Shown: positions 1,435 through 22,900 of the stretch, piece by piece
Layout: each line of letters starts with the position of its first letter
Position numbering within the stretch: the first letter of the stretch is position 1
IMG/VR virus record: IMGVR_UViG_3300025276_000027
Coordinates: 1-64,000 of that record
DNA length: 64,000 bases
Origin: a virus
Direction: 5' to 3' (one strand)
Position numbers and translations under genes: made by a program
Notes under the pieces: generated by a model
Databases searched by the model: none
What the model was told of the DNA's origin: nothing
The model's input: only the letters and a program-made list of their open reading frames with translations

Positions 1435-3060
1435 ATGGAGTATAAAAAGTATTACTGGCTCAATGATGATAGCAGACAATTTTTATCAAGAGGGTATATA
1501 ACAGAATTACCGGAACAAAGAATAAAAGATATAGCAAACACTGCTGAAAAATATTTACATATGCCAGGCTTTGCGCAGAAGTTTGAAATGTATATGTCCA
1601 AAGGATTTTATAGTTTATCTACACCCGTATGGATTAACTTTGGTAAACAAAAGGGTTTACCAATTAGTTGTTATGGATCTAATGTAGATGATAACCTAGA
1701 TAGTATACTAAATGCTGGACGTGAAATAGGTATGATGTCTAAGTATGGTGGAGGTACTAGTGTATACTTAGGTAATATAAGACCCAGAGGTACAGAGATT
1801 TCTACAGGAGGATTAGCTGATGGTCCTGTTCATTATGCTAGAATATATGATACTGTTGTAGATGTATGTAAACAATCAGAAGCAAGACGTGGAGCATGTG
1901 CAGGATACTTACCAATAGAACATGCAGACATAGAAGAGTTCTTAGATATAGGAACTGAGGGAAACCCAATACAAAACTTGCAGTATGGAGTTACAGTTAC
2001 AGATAATTGGTTGGAACAAATGCGTTCTGGGGACAAAGCTAAACGTAAAATATGGGCCAAAGTAATACAAAGGAGAAGTGAATTTGGATATCCTTACATT
2101 ATGTTCAAAGACAACTCTAATAACAATACACCATATAAAGAACTAGGAATGGATATTAATGCTTCTAACCTATGTTCTGAGATACAATTACCTACTGACA
2201 CATATAACTCGTTTGTGTGTTGTTTAGGGTCTATAAACTTGTTGCACTGGGATGAAATCATAAAAACAGATGCAATAGAAACATATGTATTCTTTTTGAA
2301 TGCGGTAATGGATGAGTTTATTAAAAAAGCTGAAGTTAAGGCCGGTCTTAAAAGAGCATATAACTTTGCTAGCAAACACAGAGCAATTGGTCTTGGTGTA
2401 TTAGGATATCATAGTCTATTACAGTCAAAACTAATAGAGTTTGAATCTCTTGCGGCTAAATCTTTAAACAATAATATATTTAAAACTTTAAAAGAACTTT
2501 CAAATGAAGCATCAAGATGGTTACACCAACACAGAGGATACAGATCCTTACGTGAAGGATATGCAAACACGACTCTTATGGCTATTGCTCCTACTAAATC
2601 TAGTTCATTTATCCACGGTGCTGTGTCTATGGGAATTGAACCAATAAAATCTAATTACTTTATTAAGGACCTTGCTAAGTCTAAGACTATATATAAGAAC
2701 CCCTTTCTTATTGATGAGTTAGATAAATATGGGTTGAACACAAAGAAAACTTGGACAAGTATATTAAAGAAAGACGGATCTGTCCAACACTTAGACTTTC
2801 CTACCAAAGCTGTATTTAAATCTTTTGTTGAGATTACACCTAAAGAGTTAGTTCTGCAGGCTGCACAAAGACAAAAGTATATTGATCAGTCACAGTCATT
2901 AAACTTAATGATACATCCATCAGTTCCGGCTAAGGATATAAATGCATTATATTTATATGCACATGATGAAGGAGTCAAGACTTTATATTATCAATTTAGT
3001 CAAAGTAGTGCTCAAGATTTTGCACGTAATATATTAGAGTGTTCTAGTTGTGAAGGTTAA
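1435..3060 (+). CDS. nrdA: Ribonucleotide reductase alpha subunit, no ATP-cone
   Basis: LPISCY, SKYGGG, SNLCSEI (catalytic N-x-C-x-E), RAIGLG, APTKSSS, GVKTLYY and C-terminal CSSCEG; 541 aa with no N-terminal ATP-cone. Confidence 0.97.
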   Translation: MEYKKYYWLNDDSRQFLSRGYITELPEQRIKDIANTAEKYLHMPGFAQKFEMYMSKGFYSLSTPVWINFGKQKGLPISCYGSNVDDNLDSILNAGREIGMMSKYGGGTSVYLGNIRPRGTEISTGGLADGPVHYARIYDTVVDVCKQSEARRGACAGYLPIEHADIEEFLDIGTEGNPIQNLQYGVTVTDNWLEQMRSGDKAKRKIWAKVIQRRSEFGYPYIMFKDNSNNNTPYKELGMDINASNLCSEIQLPTDTYNSFVCCLGSINLLHWDEIIKTDAIETYVFFLNAVMDEFIKKAEVKAGLKRAYNFASKHRAIGLGVLGYHSLLQSKLIEFESLAAKSLNNNIFKTLKELSNEASRWLHQHRGYRSLREGYANTTLMAIAPTKSSSFIHGAVSMGIEPIKSNYFIKDLAKSKTIYKNPFLIDELDKYGLNTKKTWTSILKKDGSVQHLDFPTKAVFKSFVEITPKELVLQAAQRQKYIDQSQSLNLMIHPSVPAKDINALYLYAHDEGVKTLYYQFSQSSAQDFARNILECSSCEG

Positions 3061-3109
3061 ATTTTTATTCTTGACAAATGAATAAAATGTACAGAATCAC
3101 ATGATGTAC

Positions 3110-3578: not shown

Positions 3579-3869
3579 CTATTTTCTACTTAGTTCATAT
3601 AAACGCTCTTCTAATCTTGCTAAGGTTTGTTTAATTTCTTCAACATCCTCTTGGGTGGTCATTATAGTTTCTCTAATTAATTCATCTTTTAAATCATACT
3701 CTACCCGTTCAATGGGTGGTTCAGGTAATACCATTGCTTGTGCAATATCTGCTTTAAGTGTAAACCACATGGTTGAAAGAGATACCACGAAGCCTACTAT
3801 CATACCAATTGTTTTTAAATCTAAAACAACTTTAGTTTGTTCCCCAATCTGAGGTGTTTGTTGTGCCAT
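3579..3869 (-). CDS. Single-TM membrane protein with C-terminal coiled coil
   Basis: Hydrophobic IGMIVGFVVSLSTMWFTL; heptad-rich EDVEEIKQTLARLEERLYEL; tightly spaced to both neighbours. Confidence 0.7.
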   Translation of the reverse strand: MAQQTPQIGEQTKVVLDLKTIGMIVGFVVSLSTMWFTLKADIAQAMVLPEPPIERVEYDLKDELIRETIMTTQEDVEEIKQTLARLEERLYELSRK

Positions 3870-3875
3870 TATTTA

Positions 3876-5135
3876 CTATTTAAATGAAAAGTTTAATCCT
3901 ACTGAAGTATTATATAATTCACTATCCCACATTTTTGCATACTCCCCTTCAAAAAATATACCTAAATTTTTATTTATTTTCCAACCAAAATTAGCTCCAA
4001 AAGAATAGTCTGCCCATTGTTCTGGATCATTATCTAATATTAATCCACCGTTACCCCAGTTGTTTCTATTCAAATAAGAAACTACCTCATCACCTTTTAG
4101 ATATCTATGGTATGGTAATATATAATTAGCATATGCATGCAGCCAAAAGTTTCTTTTATAATGATAAAAGTCTATTCCTACTATTGGTGCTACCTCACCA
4201 AATGCAGGTATCTCTGCCAATGCTTCTCTATTGAAGCGGTTCATCAATTCTGTAAACACACCTTCTCTAAAATCAATATCAGAATAAGCTACTATATTTC
4301 CATCAGCATCTTTCCAAATCCAATCTTGTCTTTCTTCTCCTGTTACTGCATCTGTATAAGTTGTGAAGTGATCTGTGTATCCATATTCAAATCCTAAAGT
4401 ATACCATGGGTGTGATGGAAATTCAACTGGGTTACCATCTTGATCTAAAAAAGGATTACCATTTTCATCATAAAATTGTTCAGTTTCATTAAGCCATATC
4501 TCAATTGGGTTGTAACCATAAGCACGGTCATGAGTTCTATAGATTGCTCCTGCAGAAATACTAAACTTCTCTCCTATAGGTAATCTTAATCTTGCTTCAG
4601 CAGACTGGTAAGCTAAGTTTATCTTTCCTACTTCTCTTGACTCAACTTTAACTATGTGATATTTACCTGTATGTTTTATAAAGAACCTGTGATTTTTAAA
4701 GTTTTCACCTCTCCAGCGTTCTTTCTCCCAATGTAGCTGATACTCTAAACCTTTCAATGCAGAAGTAGGAGCACTAAATGCTAGCTGTTCTTCTGTACCA
4801 TCATAAAAGTTTCTAGGCTTTCTTTCATAACTAAACCTTGCTAGTTTTCTAATACCAAAACCAATTCTATAATCATGTGGATAGTCAGGTGTATTATCTA
4901 CAACAACAGGTATATCATAGAGTCCATCTCCATCCCCTGTTCTAACAAAGTAGGTTGACTCTTCAGCTTCTATTGAGTTGTTTATGTCACCTGCACCGTA
5001 GATAGTACCATACTGTAAAAAGTCTTGATATAATACTTTAAAAAATTTACCTTTTTCTTTTGCTTCTTGTGAGTAAGAAGCATTAGGTAAATTAAGAAGT
5101 ACAACAAAAACCAACAGACTTAAATAATTTTTCAT
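3876..5135 (-). CDS. Putative outer-membrane beta-barrel protein
   Basis: Sec signal ...NASYS|QE; many amphipathic strands with an aromatic girdle (YSFGANFGWKIN, LGIFFEGEY); C-terminal beta-signal-like TSVGLNFSFK. Confidence 0.7.
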   Translation of the reverse strand: MKNYLSLLVFVVLLNLPNASYSQEAKEKGKFFKVLYQDFLQYGTIYGAGDINNSIEAEESTYFVRTGDGDGLYDIPVVVDNTPDYPHDYRIGFGIRKLARFSYERKPRNFYDGTEEQLAFSAPTSALKGLEYQLHWEKERWRGENFKNHRFFIKHTGKYHIVKVESREVGKINLAYQSAEARLRLPIGEKFSISAGAIYRTHDRAYGYNPIEIWLNETEQFYDENGNPFLDQDGNPVEFPSHPWYTLGFEYGYTDHFTTYTDAVTGEERQDWIWKDADGNIVAYSDIDFREGVFTELMNRFNREALAEIPAFGEVAPIVGIDFYHYKRNFWLHAYANYILPYHRYLKGDEVVSYLNRNNWGNGGLILDNDPEQWADYSFGANFGWKINKNLGIFFEGEYAKMWDSELYNTSVGLNFSFK

Positions 5136-5230: not shown

Positions 5231-8200
5231 TTATTTTATAAAGTAATTGTTCATTCTTAAATACGCATCATACTTTTGTATAGAATAAAGAACAGGGATT
5301 ACATCTTTCCAGTTTTTATAGACTTTAAGTTGCCCTTTTCTAGGTTTTTGTTGATATACAAAACTAGAGTTAGATTTAAATTCTTCATCACTATAATATA
5401 AATAACCAAGTGGTGTTGTTAAACTCATTGAAAGAGCTTCACCTAATTCACCCATTGTTCTTGTTGCTGCTATTGGAGATTTAAACATTTGATATTGTTG
5501 TGTCAAACCATCAGGCAGTAGTGTAAACATAACAAGTTCTTTATATGTTCTATCTGCTTGATACTTTAAGATATTTTTAAATCTTTTAGTTGTATCACTA
5601 TCATCATCGTCACCAGCAAGTAAACCTTGTAATACTTGAGATAGAACAAATGTAGATAACATAATACCTATCTCACCCATAGTTCTATAGAACCCATATA
5701 ATTTATTAGTGGCTCTTTGATCTAGGTTTCCACCTTCACCTGTATAACCATAAGCATCTAAAAAGCCTTTATTATATGTAGAAAATTCTTTATTTCCTTT
5801 TACTATTTCACTTTTAACATAAGCTAAAAATTTAAATGCAGATATATATCTTCCTTCCATCCAACCTAAGTTCTGATCAAAATATTCTCTTTGATACCTT
5901 GCTCTAATTGCTGGAGCAACCCACTTGTGAAACTGAAAAGCTAACTTACCTATAGTAGTACTTTGCATAACTACTCTATCTTCTTTAGCATAGTTACCGT
6001 GTATTTGTTTATTTACTTCTCTTATTTCATTTCTTAAACTATATCTAAACTCATCAGTATATGCTATCTCTGTACCATTCTTTTTAACTACAGTATCAAA
6101 ACCTTCTTTTAATTCATTTTTATGTGTTGTAGAATTATATTGAAAAGCATCATATAAAGATAATGTTTCACCAGTTACTTTATTTTTAATTTGTGTATCC
6201 ATCAAAATTGCCATGCCCACTTTAGTTTGAACATTATATTCTGCAGCATCTTGAAGTATATAACCCCATTCAGTTGCCTTAGCAAACCAACTTTTACCAC
6301 TACTTGTGTCAGATGTTTGTTCACGTAAATCAGACATCTTATCCATCATTCTAAATAGATCTACAAATGCCTCATACTTACTATTAGGTTTTTTTGCATC
6401 ATATGTTGAAGCTGCAGCACCTTTTACTAAACCAAAAGTTAAGACGTCTCCTAAATCACCTACAACATATGAAGATCTTTGAACTAAATCTGGGACTGCC
6501 CTCTTATTAAATTCCCAAGTTGCTCTTCTATATGCTTTTTTACTAAAGAATCTTGAGCCAAGCATTTCTATATTATTGTTAATTCTACCAATAACGTAGT
6601 TATTAAAGTTACCAAAAGGGTTAAATGCCACATAAGATAATGAAGACAATTGAATCAGACCATCTGATATCTTATCTACTGCTCCTTTACTCATAGTATC
6701 TTCTTCATAGAATGTCATAGACATCCACTTATTTGCTTTTCTTAATATATTAGAATCTTTACCTTTTATTATACCTCTTTTCTGGAAAGCACCATCTATT
6801 CTTGTACCTGTGGTTATAGTTGGGTCAGCCGGTTGATACTCACGTTTCTCAATTACTTTTACAAAAGCATTAAGAGTATCTTCAATAGTACCCATGACTT
6901 CATAATTTTCTGCCATAGCACTAAACTTCATCAATGAGTCACCTAAGTCTCTACTTATCTCACCAGTAGTTGGTTGACTTACTAATTTTGCTCTGTCTCC
7001 TCTTAATTCAGCAAGTTGTGTATTATATACTGAAATATTAATTAAACCTTTTTTCTTTTGATCTTTTAAAGTTGAAATTCTTTTATCTAACTCTTCTATT
7101 GCACCTTCCCTTCTTGCACTACCCACATAATAAATTGGCAATTGACTAACTAGATTTCCATTTTCATCTAATGCAACACCTCTTTGTTGTGATGTACTTT
7201 GAAACATTTTCCATGCTTCAGCACCTACAGTTTTTGCATATGCCCTTGAAAACCAACTAGGTTTCTCTTTTAGGTTATTAATAAAATTACCTTTTACTAA
7301 AGGTGTTTTTCCTAACATCTGTGTAAGATAATCAAGCGGTAACTTTTTTAATAAATCATTTTCAAATACATCTACATACATCTCATAGAATTCCTTTTGA
7401 GCCTGACCTAATGCGTCTGTAGGATTCATTATTGCTCTATACTTTGCACTAGTCATGTCTCTACCATCTGCTGTGACTTCACGTGTTTCTATAAATTGTT
7501 CTTTAACAGCTTTAAAGTCTTGACCACGAACAACTGCACCAGTTGGATTACCTTGTCCATCACGTTGAGCTTTTGTATAACTAATTGATTCATAATATTT
7601 AGCTACATATATAGAATATTCTTTATCTGATACTGCTCTAGAGTCTTTACGTCTCCATGTTCCAAAAGGATTTTTATCAGTGCCAGGAACCCAATATTCA
7701 TACCTTCTTCTTTCTTCTATAAAATCAGATGTATATCTATGATACATTCCATCAACTAATTCACCACTCTCATCTTTAATTTCTGCTCTAAAAAAGTCAC
7801 TAAAGGCACGTTTTTTATTTGCTACGTCTATATTATAATCTATGTCTGCTTGAGATGCAGAATCTAAATCAGTTACATCTCTATATAAATAAGGTTTGCC
7901 ATCATTATCATAAAGGACGTTTCTTATTTCTTCTTGTATTTTTCTATATTGTTTACCAATAACTTTTACATATTCACCATCACCTTCATGCATAAAATCA
8001 TAAATCTTTTGTCTATCATTTGTAGGAGAAAGTCTTAAAACTTTATTGGCTAATTTTGTAATTATTTCATTTCTCTGCCCAATATTATCTAATAACCTTT
8101 GTTTTTTATTTTTAAACAACTTATCCATTACAGCAAGCAAAACCTTTGGGGATGTTGCCATATCTTTAGTTTGTAAATCCATAGTGTCAATATCTTGAAC

Positions 8201-10903
8201 ACCATTACCTTCTATGATATCTATTAGATCTTGTTCACTAAATGCACTACCTACTCCACCAAAATCATTATTTGCATTTAGTCTTACTTGTTCAGTTACA
8301 TAATTAGAAATTGCCTGATCAATAACACCAGATCCATCAGTAGTACTACCTGCAAGTTTATTTAAAGCAAGTTGTAGTGATAATAATAAAGATCTTTGTG
8401 TTGCATTAAGCTCTGATGTTTCTTCAACCGAATACAGACCCTGAAAGGTTTTTATAAACCTATCAAAATTATTTGCATATGTTATATACTCAGGTTTAGA
8501 AAAATTAGCGGGATCTTCAATATATTTTGTAAATTCTTTAATTTGTTTTATTGCATCCATCATTAATGCTGAGTATGCTTGAGATCTAGATATAGGTCCT
8601 TCGCTAATAGCTATACCTATATAAGCCAAGTTACTTGCAATATCTTCTTTCATATCCTTCACACTACGGTCCATGAACACACTGCTGCGTACAGTATCCA
8701 TAGCATCTCTTTTAGAAATTAAGCCTATTCTGTATGTCTCAAGTGCAGTAAGCACAGTATTATATTCAGGATAATTATTTAAATCTATATTATCTGCTTG
8801 TTCTTGATCATTTTCAAATTGTTCTTCTGCAACAAAAGGTGCATCATATTGATCCGCAACAGCTTCTTCAAGCTTTCTTGTTTTGTTTTCAGCACTTAAT
8901 GACTCAGGTACAATCATATTTACCATGTCTTCGTTTTGCATAGGAGGATGATCAACAAGACCATCTTCTTTTATGTTACCACCAAACTTTTGATCTTTAC
9001 CTTTACCTGTAATATCTGCTACAAAGTGTACAGTTGCAGCTGCATAGTCACCTTGATATACTTGATAACCCATGTTTTCAGCCATCCTTCTATAGATGTT
9101 TACCTGTAAATTATGTTGTTCTCTAGTAGATAATGCTTGAATTCCTAGTTGAAATAGTATACTGTCTGTACTTAAATCCCAAGATTTATCATATTTTTTA
9201 AGTGTTAGTGATCCACCCTTTGTAGGTCTAAAGTATCTAGATGAAATTGAGTTTTTACTTGTCTTTAAATCTAATATTCTAACCTTACCGGTTTTGTCAA
9301 TGATCATTAAATCAACTGTGCCTGCTGTTTTAGTTGCATCATCAAATAGAACTACCTGTGATAATGCTATAGAATCTTCAGGCATTAGAAATTTTAGAGC
9401 AGATTGTAATTGATTATATACTTGATTTGCAATTTCAGGAGTAAGTAAGTTTAAACTAACTGTATCTAAAGATTCGCCAGCAATAAGAGCATCTAATAAA
9501 GCATCTACATCATTACCTACATCAAGATTCATCTGTACATCTTCTTGATTTTTTAGTTTACCTTTTATCTGTGTTGTGACAGAGTTATATTGCTCCCCCG
9601 TATTTATATTATAATATGTATGATCTTTTTCATTAAGAATAACAATTGATCCATCAGATGTATCTTTTAAATTTGCTGATAAAAAATCAACATCTGTTTC
9701 TGTTGTCTGTGCAACATGAAACATTTTATCTAGTATAATTTTTTGTACACCATTTGCTGAATTCCTTTGTATATCTAAAGCCTTTTTCTTTTGTGGAGAA
9801 AGGTTATATCTAATTTTACCATTTACCCTACTCTCTAATTTAAATTGTATACCTTCTGTATTTAAGAGTTTAGCAAGATCAGTAAAGTTAGTATCTGAGT
9901 TTATTGCAGATACTGGTACTTCTCTTCCTGTAAGATATTCATTTAAGTTATTTATGACATTCATAAACCACTCTAATGCGTCCTTTATTAAATCTGAAAA
10001 TCTACGTGTGGGTGTAGTTTCATATTCTTCTCTAAAATGTCTAGCTAATGCTTGTGTAACTATCTCTAAATCTCTATCTGTTTCACTAAAGCGTCTTTCT
10101 TTATTATATGAATCAGTGATTTCTTGTACCATCTCTGGAAAATTGATCCTAGCTTCAGCTAATAAATTATTAAACAAAGTATTATTATCTACTTTAATAG
10201 CATCTATAAATGGGTGTAGCATTTCCTCTATTGCTACTTCATTTGTTACTCTTCCTTTTATTAAGTATGCTGTACCATCCACATAAAAAGAGTTCATTTT
10301 ATCAAAAGGAACATTGCTTTTTTTCCATGATGGCATTTCATTATACATAGCTTTAGCATCAGATATAGATAACATTTCAACATTAACTTGAGGAAACATT
10401 CTTTTAAGATGCATTACTACTGCTCTAGCTCTAGGAGTATCCCAAGCTCTTGATGATTCAATCATATCTTTTGTTGTAAACATGTCTTCATTTACAGTTA
10501 CTCTATATGATTGCGTTGTTCTTTCAATTGTTACTCTATTCTCTGGAATATTATTTATAGATAAATACCTTTTAAGTCTTTTTAAATTACTGTTTAAATA
10601 AAACTCATCATACTGTTGAGTATTAGGATTTGAATTATTTATATAAAATTTATTTTGGAAACTATGCCCTATCCTTTCTCTTCGTAAATTATTTAATAAA
10701 CTATCTGAAAAGTTTCTTTGTTTTAAAGAAAATAATAATTTCTGATTACTTACAAATTCACTTGCTTCTAAAGCAGTAGGGAACGTATCTACATTATTAA
10801 GATCTTGCCATTGATTAATAACATTATTAGTGGCAATTTCTGTTTTATATACACCTTGCAATGCTTTATATTCAGCAGTATTTTTATTAGGACATCTAGC
10901 CAT
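5231..10903 (-). CDS. Large virion cargo/ejection protein with PD-(D/E)xK nuclease and degenerate zincin domains
   Basis: AGTVDLMIID...ILDLKT plus QVNIY (RecB-like, about 9090-9330); EEMLH at 10214-10228; directly follows the vRNAP gene as in crAss-like phages. Confidence 0.75.
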   Translation of the reverse strand: MARCPNKNTAEYKALQGVYKTEIATNNVINQWQDLNNVDTFPTALEASEFVSNQKLLFSLKQRNFSDSLLNNLRRERIGHSFQNKFYINNSNPNTQQYDEFYLNSNLKRLKRYLSINNIPENRVTIERTTQSYRVTVNEDMFTTKDMIESSRAWDTPRARAVVMHLKRMFPQVNVEMLSISDAKAMYNEMPSWKKSNVPFDKMNSFYVDGTAYLIKGRVTNEVAIEEMLHPFIDAIKVDNNTLFNNLLAEARINFPEMVQEITDSYNKERRFSETDRDLEIVTQALARHFREEYETTPTRRFSDLIKDALEWFMNVINNLNEYLTGREVPVSAINSDTNFTDLAKLLNTEGIQFKLESRVNGKIRYNLSPQKKKALDIQRNSANGVQKIILDKMFHVAQTTETDVDFLSANLKDTSDGSIVILNEKDHTYYNINTGEQYNSVTTQIKGKLKNQEDVQMNLDVGNDVDALLDALIAGESLDTVSLNLLTPEIANQVYNQLQSALKFLMPEDSIALSQVVLFDDATKTAGTVDLMIIDKTGKVRILDLKTSKNSISSRYFRPTKGGSLTLKKYDKSWDLSTDSILFQLGIQALSTREQHNLQVNIYRRMAENMGYQVYQGDYAAATVHFVADITGKGKDQKFGGNIKEDGLVDHPPMQNEDMVNMIVPESLSAENKTRKLEEAVADQYDAPFVAEEQFENDQEQADNIDLNNYPEYNTVLTALETYRIGLISKRDAMDTVRSSVFMDRSVKDMKEDIASNLAYIGIAISEGPISRSQAYSALMMDAIKQIKEFTKYIEDPANFSKPEYITYANNFDRFIKTFQGLYSVEETSELNATQRSLLLSLQLALNKLAGSTTDGSGVIDQAISNYVTEQVRLNANNDFGGVGSAFSEQDLIDIIEGNGVQDIDTMDLQTKDMATSPKVLLAVMDKLFKNKKQRLLDNIGQRNEIITKLANKVLRLSPTNDRQKIYDFMHEGDGEYVKVIGKQYRKIQEEIRNVLYDNDGKPYLYRDVTDLDSASQADIDYNIDVANKKRAFSDFFRAEIKDESGELVDGMYHRYTSDFIEERRRYEYWVPGTDKNPFGTWRRKDSRAVSDKEYSIYVAKYYESISYTKAQRDGQGNPTGAVVRGQDFKAVKEQFIETREVTADGRDMTSAKYRAIMNPTDALGQAQKEFYEMYVDVFENDLLKKLPLDYLTQMLGKTPLVKGNFINNLKEKPSWFSRAYAKTVGAEAWKMFQSTSQQRGVALDENGNLVSQLPIYYVGSARREGAIEELDKRISTLKDQKKKGLINISVYNTQLAELRGDRAKLVSQPTTGEISRDLGDSLMKFSAMAENYEVMGTIEDTLNAFVKVIEKREYQPADPTITTGTRIDGAFQKRGIIKGKDSNILRKANKWMSMTFYEEDTMSKGAVDKISDGLIQLSSLSYVAFNPFGNFNNYVIGRINNNIEMLGSRFFSKKAYRRATWEFNKRAVPDLVQRSSYVVGDLGDVLTFGLVKGAAASTYDAKKPNSKYEAFVDLFRMMDKMSDLREQTSDTSSGKSWFAKATEWGYILQDAAEYNVQTKVGMAILMDTQIKNKVTGETLSLYDAFQYNSTTHKNELKEGFDTVVKKNGTEIAYTDEFRYSLRNEIREVNKQIHGNYAKEDRVVMQSTTIGKLAFQFHKWVAPAIRARYQREYFDQNLGWMEGRYISAFKFLAYVKSEIVKGNKEFSTYNKGFLDAYGYTGEGGNLDQRATNKLYGFYRTMGEIGIMLSTFVLSQVLQGLLAGDDDDSDTTKRFKNILKYQADRTYKELVMFTLLPDGLTQQYQMFKSPIAATRTMGELGEALSMSLTTPLGYLYYSDEEFKSNSSFVYQQKPRKGQLKVYKNWKDVIPVLYSIQKYDAYLRMNNYFIK

Positions 10904-10906
10904 GAT

Positions 10907-13900
10907 TTATAAATTACATTTTTTAATTTGGTCTATAAAACCTTCTTCATTTTCATAGATACCATTATTATATTCTTCAATAAAGTCTTCCAAAGATAGG
11001 ATATTATTTTCTCTGAGAGACGCCATTGCTTCTTTATTTCCTTGTATATTAGAATCCCAAAAATCTGTAAGCATAGGAAACTGCTCATCTAACTCCATTC
11101 CAAAATCTAAAGTTAACTGACTTTCAACTTCATCTACTTCAGGCAATGATGTGTCTACATCATCAATAACGTTTGCTTCAAGTTCACTTTGATCTTGTGC
11201 TTCTTGATTTAAACCAAGCTGCTCCAATAGAAATGCTGTGTCAGCAACATTAGTCATGGTTGCTTCAGGATCAAGTTGTACATCAATACTATTTTCAGTT
11301 GCTTCAATATTTACATTATCAGATTGTAATACCTCTTGTTGTACTGCAAAATCTGATGGATCCATTGCAAAATCCATATATGGATCTTCTTGATTTTTTC
11401 CATTTTTAGAATTTACAAAAGCTCTTATTTCTTTATATGTAGGTCTAGGGCCAAACATAAAACCAATATGCGTTTGTTGATTAGAACCAAATGGATCTAT
11501 TTCCTTATATGTTTTAGATTCTGAATCTAACTTATATGTTTTGATGACACCTTGTACATCAACAACTCTAACATAGTTTGGTGTAGCATCTCTATCTAAA
11601 ACAATTGAAGCCCAATTTACTGTTACTTCATTGTCTTTTACCTGAACACCTGGTTGTAAACTTCCGGTTGTTAAAGATCTTTTAAAAGTCCAAAGTTTAG
11701 ATCCATTAATATTAGACTCAAGAAAACCTTCTGTAAATTCTTTTGTTAACTCTTCTTTAGATAATCCAAATACAGACTCAAAAGAAACATCTCCTCTCAC
11801 TGCTTTTTCAACAGTATTAATATGAGATAAAAATTTATTCATTGTAAATGGAGCAATTGCTTCTAACAAACTACCATACCTCAATTGTAATCCATCTTTA
11901 ACCATCATATAGTTAATTATTGTCTGAGCTTGATTTTTAGTATCTAAAGACCCATATAGTTGTGCAAAACTATTTTGTAAATCTACTTTTTGAGGAGCGG
12001 ATAAATTTCTAAATGTATTTGCCATTGCTATGTTAAGACCTGAATCATTACCTACATCTGTTGCAGATTCTGGTATAACAAAATTATCAATAAAGAAATT
12101 TGATTCACCTTTTGATTCTAATACTTCTTTTATTTCATTTATAACATCTACAATAGATCTATCTGAGTTTGGATATATTAAATCATTACTTAAGACTTTT
12201 TCATTTAATGTACCGTTTTGTAAAAGATTATACTGATAACCTTTTATATTTAAATAAGATAAAAGATCTAGTGCAATATTTTGAACATCTTCTGTTTTTA
12301 ATGTTGTAGCCCTTGTGTCTATATTATCTACTACATTGTTTAATATATCTTGAAAAACCGGAGCAGCAGATAAAAATGTTGCTGGTAATAAATAATCAGT
12401 AACTTGCTTAAACAATTTTAAATATGTACTATACCAAGTATTGCTATTATAAATTTTATTTAAATCTAATGGAGCATCTTCGCTAAGCAAATCTTGTATA
12501 TCTTTTTTCTTATCTAATACAGTTGCAACATCTTTACCTAGACCTTTGGTAAGGCTAGTTGGTGCACCCATCTTATCTGTAAATTGTTTTAAATCCGCTA
12601 GCTGTTTAAAATCTTGTAGGATACTAATATTTACTTCATCAGTTACTTCACCTGGAAAATTAATAGCATCTAATAAAACTGCATTTGTTACTGATATTCC
12701 TCGTGGTAATGTACCTGTCTCTTTTTTTACTTTATCAATTAATCTGAAATATTCCTTTTCTACTAATGTATCAATACCCGGATCAAATTTATCTTTTTTG
12801 TTTAATGCTTGAGAATATAAATCTTGTATAACCGGATTATTTATTAATAATATAGATGTTTTAATAGGTATACTTAATGAAGTCATCATTGATACTAAAC
12901 CTAATGCATGTCTATTTAAACCTAACTTTGCAAACAAACGCTCCTTGGCATTATCTGTAGCCATAGTAATAAGAGAGGATATTGTATCTTGATTTCTTTG
13001 ATCACCCTCATTCTTTTTCTCTGTAGTATATTTAAATGAATCATATGTTACCCCATCTATGATAATTGGAGATTTCAAATCAATCTTATATTCAGTAAGC
13101 AAACTAAGATATAAGTTAGGTAATACAGCAGCTCCAATAGAAGCTCCTTTATTTGCTTTAAAAGCAAGTATTTTACCAACCAAGTCATCTACATCATTGT
13201 TTTCTTCTAACATTCTATTTTTAAATATATCAGAAACTTCTGCTAAATCTGCCAGTGTACTATTAAGTATATCCAAAGCAGCAGGAGAATAAGAAATAGG
13301 ATTTTCACCAGATGCTACACTATCATTTCCAAGCAATGCATATTTATAATCTAGTATTTTATTATTTAAAGGAGCAGCATATGGTTCTCCAAACTTAGCA
13401 ACATATTCACCATACTGAGCTTTAGTAATAGGCAGGCCAAGTAATTGTAATGCTTTTACACCTGCCTCTTTTAATCCTGCATCTGTAACAATATTTTGTT
13501 TTGTTAAAAATTGATAGTATGCTTTTTCTTCAGATTCTGTAAGGCTATTTTCAATTTTAGCAGCATCTAAATTTTCATCATAAGTCAAATAGGCTTCAGA
13601 GTATATTGTTCCAGATTTATTTACATTAGCATTTATATATCTAATGTAATCTGAATAATTTTCTTCAAGCTTATTTTTATTACCATACTCAAAAAACTCT
13701 CCATCTTTTACATAAAAGTCCTTAAACTGTGCAAAAACTTTATCAATATCAAAATCTGCACCAGATACCTCAACTAACTCTCTAGCAAACATTGCTGAAG
13801 AACCATAAAACACCGGCATGAAATCAACCCATTTAATATTCATTGCAGAATGATTATCTTGAGATGGTATTCTTACACCAAACATTTTTGATATTGCTTC

Positions 13901-16900
13901 AGGCATAGTTGCTGAAGGTGTATTTTCAATTAAATCCATTACAGATTTATGGTGTGCTGGCATCATCATCTCAGTATACCTTTGACCTGTAGGTTCACCA
14001 TTAGAGTCATATTCCATTATACCATGTCTCAATCTATCTAATACAACAACTCCTTCTGGGCCAATATTTTCTTGTGTTAATGAATCAATGTTAAATAAGT
14101 CATTTTCAGTTCCTTGCCAAGCAGCTCTTCTTATAATTTCAGATCTAATTGGTACTCCATCTTTAATTTCAAATACTCTTCTATAAACTTTATTTCCAAA
14201 GTCTGATACTAAAGTAAGTCCTAATCCAGGAGTTCTTTCTGAGAAAACCCCTTTACTAAAATAAGATAAAAACAACTGTTCAAATTTTCTTACTATTATT
14301 TGATTGTTCAGATTATAATTTGGTATTCCTTCAGTCATAGAAAAGAACTCTAGTATTTGACTGCTAGACTGAGAAGCCTTAAGACCACTTAATGCAAACT
14401 GTAAAAATGCAGCAAGTTTAGGTGTAATTTTACCAGAAGCTTGAGATATACTTAACTCATCCATTGCATTTTCAAAACTAAATATCAAGTTCGTTTTATC
14501 ATTAAATTTTAAAGTAACTCTTTGTGATATAGCTTTATTATATTCTGTTCTAATTTCCTTAACAGACATATTTAATGCTGGAACAAATTGTTTATCATTT
14601 TGTTCAGAAGTTAGTATCTGTTTTATTTGTGTAGGATCAATCTGCTCTAATTTATTAGATGGGTTTAATTGCTGAAGACCCATAAATCTTGCATCCAATG
14701 TAGTAACACCGTTAGTGAATGGATCTGTATTATCTAATTCTTCAAGTAAATTAACACGTTGTTTCTTCATTTTAACTGCACTTAATGGCGCAGCAATTGC
14801 AATTGTTTCTTTTTCTTTCTCAATAGCTTCTAACTTCAATCTTAAATTATGAAGTGTTTCTTTTCCTGGTAGAGCAACCCAAGATTTTATATCATCATTC
14901 CATTCAGACGTATATTGCGGTGTTAATGTAAATGCAGACATTTTAAGAAATGTACTACCATCACCATAAACAAGTTTTTTTGAATTTAATAAAGCTTGCA
15001 TCTTAGCATACCCTTCTGGTGTAGCCTCATTTCCAAATACTGAATCAGAGGTTATTGTTTGACCAGCTTCAATTCTATTAATAAATTCTGCTTGAGCTGC
15101 AGATAACTTTCCAAAACCAAACCACATGTACCTAAATGCTTTTGTTGTAATATACATTTGAGCATCAGCAAAATCAATCCCACTGTCTTGAGGCTCTGTT
15201 AATGTAACTAAGCTTATATCATCTACAGGATGTATTACTCCATGCTCTGGTGCTGTTATTGCTGAGTATGCGCTATAGTATGCACCATTCTGCATTTTAG
15301 CTCTTTTAATTTGATCTACTGAATCTTTTAAAGAAACAGCCTGATCACCTAAGAGAATCTCATTTATAGAGTATGAATTTATAGCATCATTAAAGAATAT
15401 CTGTTTAAGGTTGTGCCTAAAGTTATTATTAAGATTCAGTAATGAAGCTGATTGTACAAGAGCTCCTCTACTAACTCCAGCTGCTATAACGGGACCATTC
15501 TTAACTTGATTAGATATTTGATCTTCTATTTTTAATTCATCTATTAACTGTTCAAATACTTGAAAACGGCTTTCTAAATTATCAACTAAATTATTTCGTA
15601 ATGCTGTCATTCCTGATACTTCATCAGTAACCTCACTAGTTTGTTGTGTAACTGTTCCTGCTAAAGCATCATCAAGAGTTATAATATTACCTGCTTTACC
15701 AGCTTTGATTGCTGCGTTAATAAGAAAGGTCTGTTGTTCCACAGACATTAATGTCTTAGTATTAAAGAATGTAAGTGCTCTTCCGTCTGTATATCCTAAT
15801 ATATCTTCTTGAGTCTTTGTTATATCATTTGCTTCTCTGTTTATTCTAGCAAACTCAGTTCTAATTTTATCTATATATATATCTACAGCCTCTTCAGTTA
15901 AAACAGCTTCACCATTAACCATTTCTACAGTCTTAATTACAGGTAATGCAGCCATATCACCTGTATTAGATGCTTCCATTACTCTTATAAGTATTGGTGC
16001 TAATGCTGAAATAATTTTATTACCTTCTCTATCTAAACTCTCTACTCTAGATACCTTATAACTTTTAGAATTTAAAAGAGCCCCATAATTATTTATTAAG
16101 TTAAGAGCAAACTCTTGTGGAGTAAAGTCACCATATGTTGAGGTTTGTTTAATACCCTGTAAACCATCATTTAATTCTTCTTCTGTAGATATTAAATCTC
16201 CTATCTTATTTCCTGCTACTCTTATTACTTGCAATCTTGATTCTAATGATAACTGTTTGAAAGCAGAACTATTCAATAAATAGTTATTTGCTAAATATGG
16301 ATCAGACTCAAGAAGGTCTACTAAAGCTTCAGGGTTGTTTAACTGAGCAATCTTTTTTAAATGATATGTAGGTAATTGATGTGCATAAATTAAATCCCCA
16401 TTAGGATTTTTAAATACAGATGCTCCAATTGTTTCATCAAATGGTGCATTAGCTATAGACATATTTTTTAATCTACTGTCCATACCATCTTTACCAACAG
16501 AAAATATATCTTCATTAGATTGTATCAACTGATTCATTAAAGCTATAGAGCTTTCTTTGTAAGCTGATCCATCTAAATCATGTGTCAGTGCTGCACTTTC
16601 ATTTTTATTTAATTTTAGAAAAACGCTTTGGTCTTCCTTTAAATTAGTTCTGTTATACAGCATACTATACTGAAGAAATAATGGGCTAATCTTAATACCA
16701 GAAAGCTCAAATAATTCTTGTGAATATTTCTTAGAATCTTTTTTAAGTTTAGCACTTGTAATTGCTTTATCTGTAGGTAAAATATCCTTTTGTATTTGTG
16801 AAAGTAAATTTATTAGTAAATCCTTTCTCTTAGGATCAATGATTAATTGTTTTCTTTTACTTATAAAACCTTGGTTCCATCTATCCAATTGAGAATTTAC

Positions 16901-19900
16901 ATCATCTCTTTCAGATGCAGAGTATACTATAGTATTACCAGCATTATCTCTTTCATTAAATAAATAATCTACCCTAAAGTTTTCAAAACCTTTAAGTATA
17001 GATTGAAATAAAAGAGGAGATTGTATTTCAGTAGGTATACCATTATCTTTTAATAACTGTTCTTTGGTTATTCCAACATCATTTAAAATTCTTTGTACTA
17101 TAGCTCCAGTTTCTGAATTGTCTTGTCCAAAGAAATACATACTTTGAAGTATCTGTTTAGGGTCAGTTAAATTCTTTACAGCTTTTAATAAACCATTATA
17201 TGCTTCTACAAAATCAACAGCTATTATTAATGGCTCACCATTTGTTAATTCTACATTTCCAAAGTAATCTGTTGCTTCTACAGAAGTTGTTGCAATATAA
17301 GCTCTAAGTTGACTAGATAGAGATCTAAAACCACCAATCATTGATGCATCCTTTTCATACTCTGTTGTAGATCTTATACCCGTTGCGTCTTCAAATTCTT
17401 CTACTTCATATCGTTCATTATCTGATTTGTCACTTATTTGATTTATGTATGCTATACTTTGTTCTCTTATTGTGGCACTATAATTATCAAACGCTGATTG
17501 TATTTCATTTAACTTCACCTTCTGCAGATCAGTCTTATTTTCATTAATTGGATTATCAATACTGTATAACCATTCAAAGTCATCCAATACAGAATCCATT
17601 TGATTTTTAGGGTTATAAGATTCTGTTAATTTAGATACACGTTGTAAAAACATAGCTGATATATTTCTGACTAATGGATCTGCTATATCACTTTCTAAAT
17701 AAATAAATCCTAAATTTCCTTTCTCAGTTATTGAGTTATAAGGTATTAATGCATTTGCTTCTATTGTAGCTCCAACGTTTAATGCTGTAGTAAATTCATT
17801 ATTTGCTATTTGTGCTCCTTTAAATTTACCACTATCAATATTTTCAAATAGAGTACGCAATTCATTTTTTGAATATGAATTAAATACAGACTGAATCCAA
17901 TCTAGAATTCTAGTAAATAAAGATTTAACACTTGCATCAGTATTGGTATTCTTAGGGTTTATTTTAAACTTGTTAAATTCATCTGCTAGATATTCTTCAT
18001 AGTATTGATTCTCTAGTTCTTGCCTAGTCATGTTACTATATGTATCTGCAGAGTTTTTAAATTTCTGTAGTTCTTTCTCAAAGCTTTTTCCTTCAGCTCT
18101 AAGTTTAGCTCTTACTTCTTTTCTAGCAATATTTCTATATCTTTTTATTTCTTCATCACTAAGTAGCATTCTAAATACACCGTGAAAAGCTTCATGATAT
18201 TTATAAGGAGAAAGTGCACCAGTATAAATAGTTCCAGATACCTTTTGTCCACCAGCCACATGATTTAACCCTAATACAAAGGCACCAACACGTACACCCC
18301 CTGCTTTTAAATTATTACCTAATGTAGTTATATCAGATATATTCATATAACCAGGTAAGTTGTTTGCAGCCCAATCAGTAAAGACATCTATATCCTCTAC
18401 ATCTGTCAAACTAAAATCAGAAGAAGACATAATTTTATTAGCTTCTTTTTCAATTGCTTTTCTTTGAGCTAATAATTTTTGATACTCTTCACTTGTTCTA
18501 AGAGTCTTACCTCTATCTTTAGGTGCTACACCCTCTAATAGCTGCGTCTTAACAGTTTCAAGTTGTTGTTTTATATCTTCAAGATTATTGATTTGTTGTG
18601 TTGCTGGCTGCTTACCGTCTCTAAACATTTGCCAGCTAGATTTATTATTTCCAACTTGTGGAATACTATCATCTAATCTATCTTGAATATAGTCAACTAT
18701 GATACCCATTTTGTCCATAGTAAAATCATAGTTCTTGTTTATTCTATTCAGAACCATTTGTCTACCTACTTCTTGTGTTATCTTTCCGTTCTTTATGCTT
18801 TTCTCTATTATCTTTATGTAATTCTCTATAGAGTTATCTTCTTCAGCTTTTGCTTCTTTACCATAATATATGGTACTACCATCCACGTCTTTATTTTTAG
18901 TCTTAGTTCCAAGAGGTTGTGTACTATTACCTCTACTTGCAGCACGTTTTGCTTCATATAACTTAGTAATAAGACTCTGGAATTTAGCTCTATCTTTATC
19001 AGCAACCTCTGATGTAACAGGATCTCTTAAAGCTTGAATCTGTTCCTCAATAGTAGATACAGCATCATCAAACTTTTGATTTGGATTAGATGTTGAAACT
19101 TGCTCACTAGTGTTAAGTCCTAAGAAATTTTGAGCTTTAACTCCTAATTGATTTAATACAGCGTCTATTTCCTTCTGAGAAGTAGCAAGACCATTCATTT
19201 GGTTAGGTACTCCTTCAAACTTACCAATTAAAAAGAATTTTACAGATCCATCTGGACTTGTTGCTTTTATTATCTCGGATCCATTTTCATTGTTTTTAAT
19301 TATTTGATTTACAATACCTCCTTTTATGTTCTTTTGTTCAAAAGTATAAATACCTTCTACCCTAGAAAAAGCTTCAACCCCACTAGTTTGTTGTAAACCT
19401 TCTCCACCTCTTTGAGATACCATTACATTAATAGTAGCAGCTCTCATATTATAAACTTCTACTTCTCTTGATGTTAAATTATCTACACCCTCTTTAACAA
19501 TTTTATTTGCTATATGGTTAATAAATTCAGAAGGGAGTGTAAGGAAATCTTTAGCTGCAAATTCAGCAAATGCGAGATCACTTAAGTCTAATAAACTAAA
19601 CTCTGCTTCTTCTGAAGTAAAATTAGATTCATCTATTTCAGTATTTTCTACTACATCTTCTTTTATATTACCCTTATCTATTTCAGCTTGAATAGCAGAA
19701 GACTCACCTGTAGCTCTAGCAGAACTATTTAATACTACTTCAGGTCTTACATTAGTTGTTGTTAAATCAATAATTTCATTAGCAGATGTTGCTGTAGGAA
19801 AAGATTCTCTAAAGTTCTTATTTGATAAAGTAACTTTTGTTGCTTTAATGTCGGCATCATTATTAAAATCTTTTATTAATGACTGTATAAATCCAGTAGC

Positions 19901-22900
19901 AGAATTTTGATTTACAAAAGATGTACTATTTGCAGCAGGTATATCTATTGTAATGGTTTGACCTACTTGTTTAGAAGTATTTTTATCAAATAATTGTAAC
20001 TGCAATTTACCCCACGGAGAAACTTGCAATGAAATATTATAATCAGAATTACTTGAAATAAAAACTTTATCTGGTACAGTAGTATCATTGAAATCTCTAT
20101 TATAAGCTTCATCTTTTACTTTACCATCTTTATCTAGATTTTCCTTTTTTGTTTTCTGTGCACGCTCTACAAGATCAACAGCTAAAGAACCTCTTTGATC
20201 TTTAGTTAATGAACGTGCTTTTAAATTAATAGGTCTGTAAGATCCATCTGGTAATTGAACTATAGCCACATACCTATCTGAACCAGTTATTATATTATCC
20301 CACATCAAATCCTTTTGTAATCTGGACTTTATTTTATTATATAGTTTAACATTTTCTTCTGCTGTAGTAATATATTCTATTGTTCTTGACCCTTTTTTTC
20401 TCTTTAAATCAAATATAAAGTAGCTTCCATTTTCATCAGCATGCTCATAACGTAAATCTTTTAAAGATCTTGTATTACTATTATCAATAGATCTACCACC
20501 CTTTTGTGTTATAAAGTTTAAACCAAAAGGTAATTGATTTATTCCAATCACAGATTTTGGATTACTATCTGCATAAGCAAGTAACAATGCATTAAGTGCA
20601 AAATTATTTCTTACTAATTCTAAAGTTTGTTTTTGATCTAATGTAGCCTTAAGTTCAGGGCTTACAAAAATACTATTAAGAGCTTGTTCTCTTGACATAT
20701 TAGCTAAAGAAGTAACGTCTTTTATTTGTATGTTACCATTAGGAATATATGCAAATATCCCATCTGCATTATCTGTGATAGGTACACCATTATCTTTTAA
20801 TATTTTATTAATTCTATTTTTTATCTTCCCGTTAGGAATAGAAAGCCCTATGCTATACTTAGATTGTACTATAGTAACATATGGGTTTTGTTCTTTACCT
20901 TTTATAACATAATTTCCAATATTGTTACCACCCTCATTATTAACATTTATAACAAGTTCTAAAGTATTAATCTCTTCTTGAGTTAAATTATCTAGTATAA
21001 TATTTAATCTATCATCCGCACCTTCATAATCTCTTTTACCATTTTCATCTGTATTAGCATGTGGATATACTTTATTAATATCAGTTATATTTACTCTAGC
21101 TACATTTGACGGTAGCAGATCAAATTTTATTTCTTGTGTAGTATATGAATTTTTAAATTGACCAGATTGTAATGTTACAGGTTTGCCCTCAAAATTATTA
21201 GGAACTAAACGCAGGTTTCCTCCTTGTACAAATTTTGGTGTACTTATAACTCTATATTCTTTACCATCACTATCATAAACCAATTGTCCCTGAAATAACA
21301 TTACTCCATCAAAAGGAAAAGGAGTACTATCTGGAGCACGCTTATCTAACTTTCTCATACTTGCAATAGCAGTACCAGAATTATTAAATGCATTACGGGT
21401 AATTCCTATTTGTAATAATAATTCTGGAGATACATTATTTCCATTTTTATCAACTAATTTAAAAAATGCTTCAACTTCACCCTGAGAATTGAATGTTGTT
21501 ATTTTTAATACATCTACTATAGTCCCCTCCTGAAAAACTCTAGGTTTTGGTGGATTAGCAGGATCTATATTATCTTCATCATCTTCATTTGCAACTTTAG
21601 GTGTAACAAGAGTAGGATCAGATTTAACTGGCTCAGTATAATACATTTCATTTAATGGAATACCCGCTGCTTGAAGTATATCTCTTACTAAAGGATTTTC
21701 TAAAACCTCTCTGCTTCTCAACCATTGATCAAAACCTGCTTCTGCTTTTATGTCTGCATCTGATAACTCAGTAAATATAGGATTACCTTTAGCATCCATA
21801 ACAGGTAGCTTACCAGATATCCATAGTTTCTTTAATGCATTAAATGAATTTTGCCAGTTTAGACCTTCTGTATTTCTCCATTCCTCAAAAGTCTTAACTG
21901 TCTCACCAAGTACTGTCTGTGTTCCTGAATACTTTCTGTATTGTCTGTCCAATAATTTTTGTAATAATATACTATTATTTGCATCAGGTAATATAACATC
22001 TATATTTGCGTCTTCTAAAATTTCATCTTGATTATTTTTTGTCTCCTTTACTTCAACATCTTTACCCTTTTCTTCAGTTGTGTCTGTTGACTCATCAGTT
22101 TTTTCTGACATACTTCTGTACGTCTCAAGAAGTCTTTGGATTTGATCATACTTTACTTTATCTAAGTTAGGATCTATATCTCCCTGGTCATCATAAAAAT
22201 TCTTTAATTCATTTACATTACCAGAAATTAGAAACTTCTTAACTTGTTCAGGATCACCAACATAACCAGCTTCAAATAACTTATTCATTAATACATTAGC
22301 TTCTTTTATATTAATGTATTTTTCTATTTGTTGTTTATGTATTTTACTAAGGTTCTTATATATATTTTTATTAACCTCTATCTGTCTATCTACAATATCA
22401 CTAAGCCTTTGTGGATTATTTAAATACTCAATAGCTTTATCATATACTTTAGCTCTACCATTTAATGCTTTGTAATCTACTATTTCTTTAAGCGCATCTT
22501 GCATTTTTGATCTATCAACAAATGAATTAGTTGAATTTGCCATAAACTGCACATACTTTTCAAAAGCAGATGTTAATTTATTTATTTTTCTTCTATCAAA
22601 TGAACCATCCTTAGTTAGGTTTTTTGGATCATTTAATATTTTTTCAATAGCACTAAGATTTTTTATTTTGTTTGTTGCTTTTTCTATAGCTTTTTTTCCT
22701 TCACTTGTTTCTTTATCTTGAACTGCAATATCTTGTAGTAATAATCCTATTTCATTATTTATAGAGTCTATATCTAATAATACTGTAATATCATTAGCTG
22801 CCATTCCTTCAAATAATGGCTCATTACTCAACTTAGTATAAATACCAAGTTGTCTTTCTGTTGCACGTTTAAACCCGTCTTCAGTAAACATTTGAAGATA

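Follow-up and report, generated by a model that had tools for sequence, protein, structure and literature searches.

Lone terminal cysteines at the junctions of split giant virion proteins suggest an end-to-end link in crAss-like phages

We analyzed a 64,000-nucleotide (nt) stretch of viral DNA, positions 1 to 64,000 of the IMG/VR virus record IMGVR_UViG_3300025276_000027 (referred to here as the window), and report on the junction between two of its giant genes, A and B. Their products are probably injected proteins of a marine crAss-like phage, which is uncultured. Each protein contains a single cysteine (Cys), and the two residues face each other across the junction, that of protein A lying at the C terminus and that of protein B at the N terminus. 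The pair is conserved among relatives and covaries with the split or fused structure of the genes. We propose, with a probability of roughly 0.6, that A and B are pieces of one functional giant chain that are rejoined head to tail through their sole cysteines, most likely by a disulfide. Support for a disulfide as the type of bond comes by analogy from the virion structure of cyanopodophage A4 (Anabaena phage A-4L), in which Cys1715 of gp27 is bonded to Cys5 of gp26 (PNAS 2025, PMC12002296).

Protein A ends in EGFIDQIKKCNL, followed by the stop codon, and protein B begins with MARCPNKNTAEYKAL (coordinates are collected in Table 1). Translation confirmed what an earlier note on this DNA had reported, namely, a lone Cys third from the C terminus of the virion RNA polymerase (vRNAP), which is protein A, and another at residue 4 of the 1890-amino-acid (aa) protein that follows. 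The segment from 10892 to 10918, to which that note had drawn attention, is bounded precisely by the two Cys codons. Under random placement, the probability that both lone Cys lie at most 5 residues from the junction is ~2.8e-6 for this window alone, and chance placement is ruled out because the pair is conserved in relatives. The two genes belong to a block that appears in the ORF list of the window as a long run of giant minus-strand open reading frames (ORFs). Terminal Cys are absent at the other giant cargo junctions of the window (1307/1046, 1046/1081, and 1081/A).

Relatives were collected by scanning IMG/VR twice with protein seeds and once with a profile, which yielded 61 loci. The profile scan is somewhat biased, in that one seed pattern, N[TA]AEYKA, adjoins the Cys; no such bias affects its second pattern or the two protein-seeded scans. 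At 61 of 61 loci, the upstream giant ORF ends in C-x(1-4)-stop and the downstream ORF begins with M-x(1-3)-C. The junction Cys were also the only ones in the ~1000 aa read upstream and the ~1400 aa read downstream at all loci but L059, where the upstream frame is just 162 aa long and has two Cys. When distinct junctions were considered, both Cys were found to be kept in 34/34, even where identity over the first 400 aa of B drops to 33%, which bears out the co-conservation that the earlier note had proposed to look for. A further, internal Cys, which that note had held to speak against its proposal, was found in neither A nor B of the window. In five divergent near-complete genomes, the A homologues (4988, 5198, 5043, 5257, and 5231 aa) likewise have exactly one Cys each, 2 to 5 residues from the C terminus.

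Flanking residues, spacer length, and frame vary across the 34 junctions while both Cys stay. The spacer measures -1 to 26 nt, the genes are in frame at 18 junctions and out of frame at 16, and several of the in-frame junctions of relatives have two or three stops in the spacer. The earlier note had also stressed that the two genes share a frame and are separated by TAA-ATC. This is true in the window but is not conserved, and the shared frame is therefore uninformative on read-through or recent fission. Across the 34 junctions, only two positions in the final 60 aa of A are nearly invariant, the Cys and one Phe. The two ends are complementary in charge, with a mean net charge of -1.8 over the last 20 aa upstream, versus +1.8 over the first 8 aa downstream.

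On the basis of matches to g066, gp49, and g065 and of sequence motifs, we assign protein A to M2 (the vRNAP) fused to a probable M1 (the gp47/g067-like module with a zincin motif), and protein B to module M3, as the homologue of crAss001 gp49 and phi14:2 g065. A 3714-4396 aligned with residues 1244-1917 of phi14:2 g066, a vRNAP, in BLASTP (E 2e-11), with the catalytic motifs in register (GADFDIDK in A and GSDFDIDK in g066). In A, this motif lies at 3825-3832 and the zincin motif HEAFH at 2347; the latter is the same pentapeptide as that at residue 2157 of crAss001 gp47. In tblastn searches, B 1277-1841 matched crAss001 53571-55124, inside gp49 (E 1e-24), and B 1623-1872 matched phi14:2 g065, annotated as "RNA polymerase associated protein" (E 6e-4). 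BLASTP gave no match between A and phi14:2 g067, Pfam had no family for A or B, and no PHROGs family matched A. Nothing useful was returned by phmmer searches of A (last 2000 aa) and B, or of a profile of the B N terminus, against PDB sequences, and the junction region had no match in the phage collection by blastn or tblastn. A weak PHROG match to "exonuclease" phrog_298 (E 1e-12) was noted for B aa 414-613 (window 9065-9664). The M1, M2, and M3 proteins have been detected in particles of phi14:2 and crAss001 (PMC10172136; preprint 10.1101/2020.03.07.982082).

The terminal Cys recur where the modules are encoded by three separate genes. In phi14:2, g067 (1797 aa) has one Cys, its final residue (...NTIC); g066 (2180 aa) has two, at 3 and 2179 (MAC...QECK); and g065 (1421 aa) has one, at 3 (MSC...). 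The three proteins together contain four Cys in 5398 aa, all of them terminal and placed at both junctions. In crAss001, gp47 has one Cys, at 2339 of 2341 (...LRCNS), gp50 has Cys at 5, 1334, and 2404 of 2412 (MSKRC...KICGANTLYEL), and gp49 has one, at 5 (MAKKC...). gp47 is encoded on the strand opposite to gp50 and gp49, yet the Cys pair is present; a junction-level explanation is thereby excluded. A further IMG/VR clade with three proteins shows the same arrangement, reading ...FIRDCR, then MSVC......NLC, and then MARRRKASC....

Where modules are fused, the corresponding Cys are missing. In the Intestiviridae (LMMB, crAss002, and cr271_1), M2 and M3 are fused. M1 of these phages ends in ...SFSCM (LMMB), ...SFVCS (crAss002), and ...KISCM (cr271_1), and the fusion protein starts with MSC in 3/3, in the case of crAss002 only from an internal Met. 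None of the three fusion proteins has a C-terminal Cys. The fusion point, which was placed in LMMB and crAss002 from alignments with gp50 and gp49, lies inside a stretch without Cys (LMMB 2221-3104 and crAss002 2109-3086). The earlier note had suggested a search for fused homologues. Such forms of the A-B junction exist in the Intestiviridae, but no longer (fused) homologue of B was found in a search among close relatives, which is weak evidence. The annotated start of crAss002 gp33 (L065:4196-4294) is probably 32 codons too far upstream; the internal ATG gives MSCTPSNPK..., in agreement with the M-x-C start of all relatives.

In the Suoliviridae (cr4_1 and cr118_1), M1 and M2 are fused, as in the window. 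The remaining junction reads ...MLNCKGK and MICPNLNDK... in cr4_1, where no second Cys occurs in 1803 aa downstream, and ...MKHCKGE and MICPNLSNPK... in cr118_1, where it is the sole one in 1667 aa. In the window clade, the M1-M2 fusion point is without Cys. No Cys occurs at the outer ends of the chains examined. For each junction, some families have the split form and others the fused form, and the Cys pair goes with the split one. The annotated giant genes of cr4_1 (gp24-gp27; L071) contain 7 to 38 in-frame stops under table 11, and the terminal-Cys pattern still holds; the stops fit the stop codon reassignment reported for some crass-like phages (PMC7886860).

We also counted distinct adjacent ORF pairs in all metagenomic loci fetched. 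Cys were present within 10 aa on both sides of the junction in 46/51 pairs of ORFs of at least 900 aa, versus 7/134 control pairs of smaller ORFs. The Fisher p of ~4e-30 is nominal and overstates independence, because the lineages are related.

To extend the M3 comparison, 1.84 billion representative proteins were searched with a profile of B 1-400 in hmmsearch; of the 615 hits, 100 had a Met start and at least 1000 aa and were taken as the full-length M3 set. A Cys is found at residue 3-7 in 97 of these 100 representatives and is the sole Cys in 63, in a family with a background Cys content of 0.11%. Members whose first 60 to 1000 residues do not align with the profile carry the N-terminal Cys too, so it is not an alignment artefact. 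Of the three exceptions, P0115 alone is genuine, the other two being truncated gene calls.

Extended to the order, this pattern would mean that the Crassvirales vRNAP is a cut-up N4-like chain that is stitched together by terminal disulfides, with a Cys pair added at each split and dropped at each fusion. We regard this broader statement as evenly balanced between right and wrong. The earlier note had also suggested that the junction may mark fission of an ancestral chain of about 6,670 aa. The gene arrangements would be compatible with this, as they would be with an originally split state. Phages in which all three modules are fused are mentioned in preprint 10.1101/2020.03.07.982082.

Structure predictions were made for both ends of the junction. 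As the two genes share a frame in the window and in 11 relatives, their read-through translation was open to folding on an alignment of these junctions. In the resulting AlphaFold2 model, helices at model residues 136-199 had predicted local distance difference test (pLDDT) scores of 66 to 80, residues 35-140 scored <50, and a coil ran through MARCPNKNT after the helix that ends in the Cys. The tail of A (10910-11437) resembles a docking piece on a leash. In an AlphaFold2 model of B 1-400 (24-sequence alignment, mean pLDDT 72), residues 1-9, including Cys4, were predicted as coil before a helix. Further along, E226, E227, and H230 are invariant alignment columns. In Foldseek, the fold of B 154-327 weakly matched anthrax lethal factor and PPEP in their zincin-type domains (E 0.08), and VIA also gave weak zincin-type matches (Z 5.3-6.5, root mean square deviation 3.9-4.7, 138-166 residues). 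This zincin-like domain is a possible docking site for the A tail. In another clade, a B-like domain with a similar Cys arm (C-V-N-x-N-S-x-E-F-K) stands before the polymerase, not after it (L096:12304-13014); residues 1102-1338 of this protein, L096_Y, align with B 114-356 (E 2e-29). This position indicates that the domain, or the break point, moved between modules.

Table 1. Features of the A-B junction and of the two genes (window positions)
Feature	Position	Strand	Remarks
Gene A (protein A, 4775 aa)	10907..25234	minus	Sole Cys is residue 4773
A acidic, poorly conserved stretch, ~120 aa	11090..11437	minus	Asp/Glu-rich variable columns; predicted disordered
A C-terminal module, ~60 aa	10910..11089	minus	FWDxNIQ...LR.NNILSLEDFIxEYN...F[IL][DE]xIKxC; predicted small helical bundle, Cys ending last helix
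Cys4773 codon TGT of A	10916-10918	minus	Third from A C terminus (...FIDQIKKCNL, then stop)
A-B spacer	stop TAA 10907-10909; codon ATC 10904-10906	minus	Then B ATG 10901-10903; one frame
Gene B (protein B, 1890 aa, module M3)	5231..10903	minus	Sole Cys is residue 4
Cys4 codon TGT of B	10892-10894	minus	Start MARCPNK; column invariant in two alignments
B N-terminal arm and first helices	10724..10903	minus	MA[RK]CPNKNTAEYKALQxVY...; residues 1-9 predicted coil
B zincin-like domain, aa ~154-327	9923..10444	minus	Motif EEMLH, aa 226-230, replacing HExxH

The block around these genes, 3876-37643, encodes seven consecutive minus-strand proteins that total 11,173 aa and contain four Cys in all. The virion proteins beyond it (37643-63734) are mostly richer in Cys, at 1.6-5.9%.

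For the window phage, we infer the following course of bond formation, docking, ordered ejection, and reduction. The 60-aa helical C-terminal module of A, on its disordered acidic tether, would dock on B, either at its N-terminal arm or at its first domain. Within the particle, an intermolecular disulfide would then join Cys4773 of A to Cys4 of B, probably when the particle is in oxic seawater. Since both proteins are otherwise Cys free, mispairing would not be possible, and no other thiol would be available to periplasmic oxidases. The Cys lie 1 to 4 residues from the C terminus and 2 to 4 residues from the N terminus, so the cross-link would be a small branch that could pass a narrow tail channel, and B could follow A as one thread. 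The host cytoplasm could then reduce the A-B link. The tail-to-head tether put forward in the earlier note gains from the co-conserved pair, from its tracking of split and fused states, and from the A4 analogue, but it draws no support from the in-frame junction.

Several points weigh against an end-to-end disulfide. In one locus (L083), the polymerase is cut into 2514 and 1493 aa (L083:6306-18359), and there is no Cys at the cut, which falls where relatives are continuous; this cut may reflect a frameshift, an error of assembly, or a recent split still to gain the Cys pair. In the crAss001-like group, the C-terminal Cys is 9 to 14 residues from the end. P0115 (2437 aa), the only full-length M3 member without an N-terminal Cys, has zero Cys; its genomic context was not located in viral or metagenome contigs. 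For Crassvirales, we infer the tether from sequence comparisons. Oxidation of the Cys would have to take place although assembly of the particle occurs in a reducing cytoplasm and the habitat of gut crassviruses is anoxic. The read-through AlphaFold2 model informs on secondary structure and confidence. Comparison of A4 gp26 and gp27 with the crassvirus proteins gave nothing below E 0.02 (BLASTP and hidden Markov models), and the matches listed by Foldseek and VIA for folded B 1-400 include no A4 chain. Because no similarity of sequence or fold was found, A4 is treated as an analogue, not a relative.

The question of oxidation would be avoided if the terminal Cys bridged a metal ion (Zn, Cu, or Fe) in a noncovalent clasp that forms in the reducing cytoplasm before packaging. 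Such a clasp would suit both the reducing cell and the anoxic gut hosts, zincin-type motifs are present in both proteins (HEAFH in A and EEMLH in B), and the split/fused pairing rule is fitted as well by a metal as by a disulfide. We nevertheless consider it unlikely. Each terminus supplies one Cys, no conserved His, Cys, or Asp occurs at a fixed spacing beside either Cys across lineages to act as an extra ligand, and the sole solved case with such a signature, A4, is a disulfide.

It is similarly improbable, in our estimation, that each Cys acts alone, either as a "cysteine switch" of the matrix metalloprotease (MMP) type on the adjacent zincin-like domain or as an anchor to the Cys-rich portal, ring, or muzzle. 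The Cys arm of B does run straight into the zincin-like EExxH domain, a similar arm-plus-domain unit precedes the polymerase in the clade of L096_Y, and ARCPN of B loosely resembles the MMP motif PRCG.PD; the outer virion proteins of the window phage are also Cys rich. However, a pattern search found neither HExxH nor EExxH in g066 and gp50, which nonetheless have Cys at both ends, and gp49-like proteins without a zincin motif (e.g., L096_Z) also start with a Cys. As judged by these patterns, the switch was rejected as a general rule. The Cys of crAss001 gp47, found 180 aa beyond HEAFH, is gone once M1 and M2 fuse. Finally, an anchoring role predicts something other than what is found, which is Cys at facing ends always and at outer ends never. 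Independent roles also leave unaccounted for the loss of both Cys on fusion.

Chance, a nucleotide-level constraint on the junction (translational coupling or start context), or read-through to a 6667-aa protein is scarcely credible: although just 3 nt separate the two genes, which share a frame in the window, and although a lone Cys is conspicuous against the Cys-poor background of an AT-rich genome, the Cys are kept despite spacers of -1 to 26 nt, extra stops, and 16/34 junctions out of frame, the pair is present in crAss001 with genes on opposite strands, and the random-placement probability is ~3e-6 for this window alone.

Further candidates were rejected individually. Programmed stop codon read-through is contradicted by the frame, which is not shared in 16/34 junctions, and by the two or three stops of several in-frame ones, and translational coupling by the variable spacer and frame and by the opposite strands in crAss001. 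A split intein or trans-splicing would have no room for intein halves, with 1 to 4 residues after the C-terminal Cys and 2 to 4 before the N-terminal Cys. There is no signal peptide ahead of B Cys4, as a lipoprotein lipobox would need. CaaX prenylation does not accord with a tail length that varies from 0 to 14 residues or with bacterial hosts, and a single Zn(Cys)4 site to which four termini contribute does not accord with the one-junction lineages, which have just two Cys.

How crassviruses pack and inject ~700 kDa of polymerase-associated protein is an open question, and the polymerase proteins are unresolved in the crAss001 particle (Bayfield et al., PMC10172136). If A and B are linked through their terminal Cys, the tether would explain how separate gene products act as one chain and why Cys is avoided elsewhere in these proteins, and the pieces would be packaged in a fixed ratio and would thread their way into the host one behind the other. 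The terminal Cys also provide a simple annotation marker for the true starts and ends of giant genes, such as crAss002 gp33. The Cys of the M1 to M3 proteins are unmentioned in the phi14:2 preprint, the crAss001 atlas (PMC10172136), Yutin et al. 2021, and the 2026 N4 paper, and a full-text literature search combining Crassvirales, cysteine, and RNA polymerase returned unrelated papers only. We found no description of a terminal-Cys tether for Crassvirales, to which our sequence comparisons point; a disulfide of such a signature is known in phage A4.

Among the closest known systems, A4 is alike in arrangement. When the A-4L record was translated, gp27 (1717 aa) proved to have its sole Cys at 1715 (...DNPCQF) and gp26 (1114 aa) its sole Cys at 5 (MSKHC...). 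As in the window, the genes are adjacent and encode large internal ejection proteins, with a lone Cys third from the upstream C terminus and another at about residue 5 of the downstream protein. The Cys of A4 gp27 is carried by a helix at the C terminus, and the same is predicted for A. Unlike the window, A4 has one junction and no vRNAP, and the A4 paper presents the bond as a local stabiliser, not as a rule that tracks gene splits (PMC12002296).

The homologous systems are g067-g066-g065 of phi14:2, whose gp66 was described as a vRNAP by Drobysheva et al. (preprint 10.1101/2020.03.07.982082), and gp47-gp50-gp49 of crAss001, both of which have terminal Cys at both junctions. The window differs in that M1 and M2 form one 4775-aa protein, so that there is one junction and one Cys pair. 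Disulfides are mentioned for the crAss001 particle for the tail hub and ring proteins only, which they link (Bayfield et al. 2023, PMC10172136). Strong Cys suppression in giant ejected virion RNA polymerases, as seen here, also is found in the Schitoviridae (N4 gp50 and DEV gp71-73), where it has been explained by passage through the periplasm (PMC11445570). The three-part layout of N4, with an N-terminal part, the polymerase, and a C-terminal part, is similar (PMC13434306), and, according to the 2026 N4 paper (PMC13434306), how the three crassvirus proteins correspond to these parts of the N4 vRNAP (N-terminal, core, and C-terminal) "warrants further investigation". The N4 vRNAP is a single chain with zero Cys, whereas the chain encoded in the window is cut and has one Cys at each cut end.

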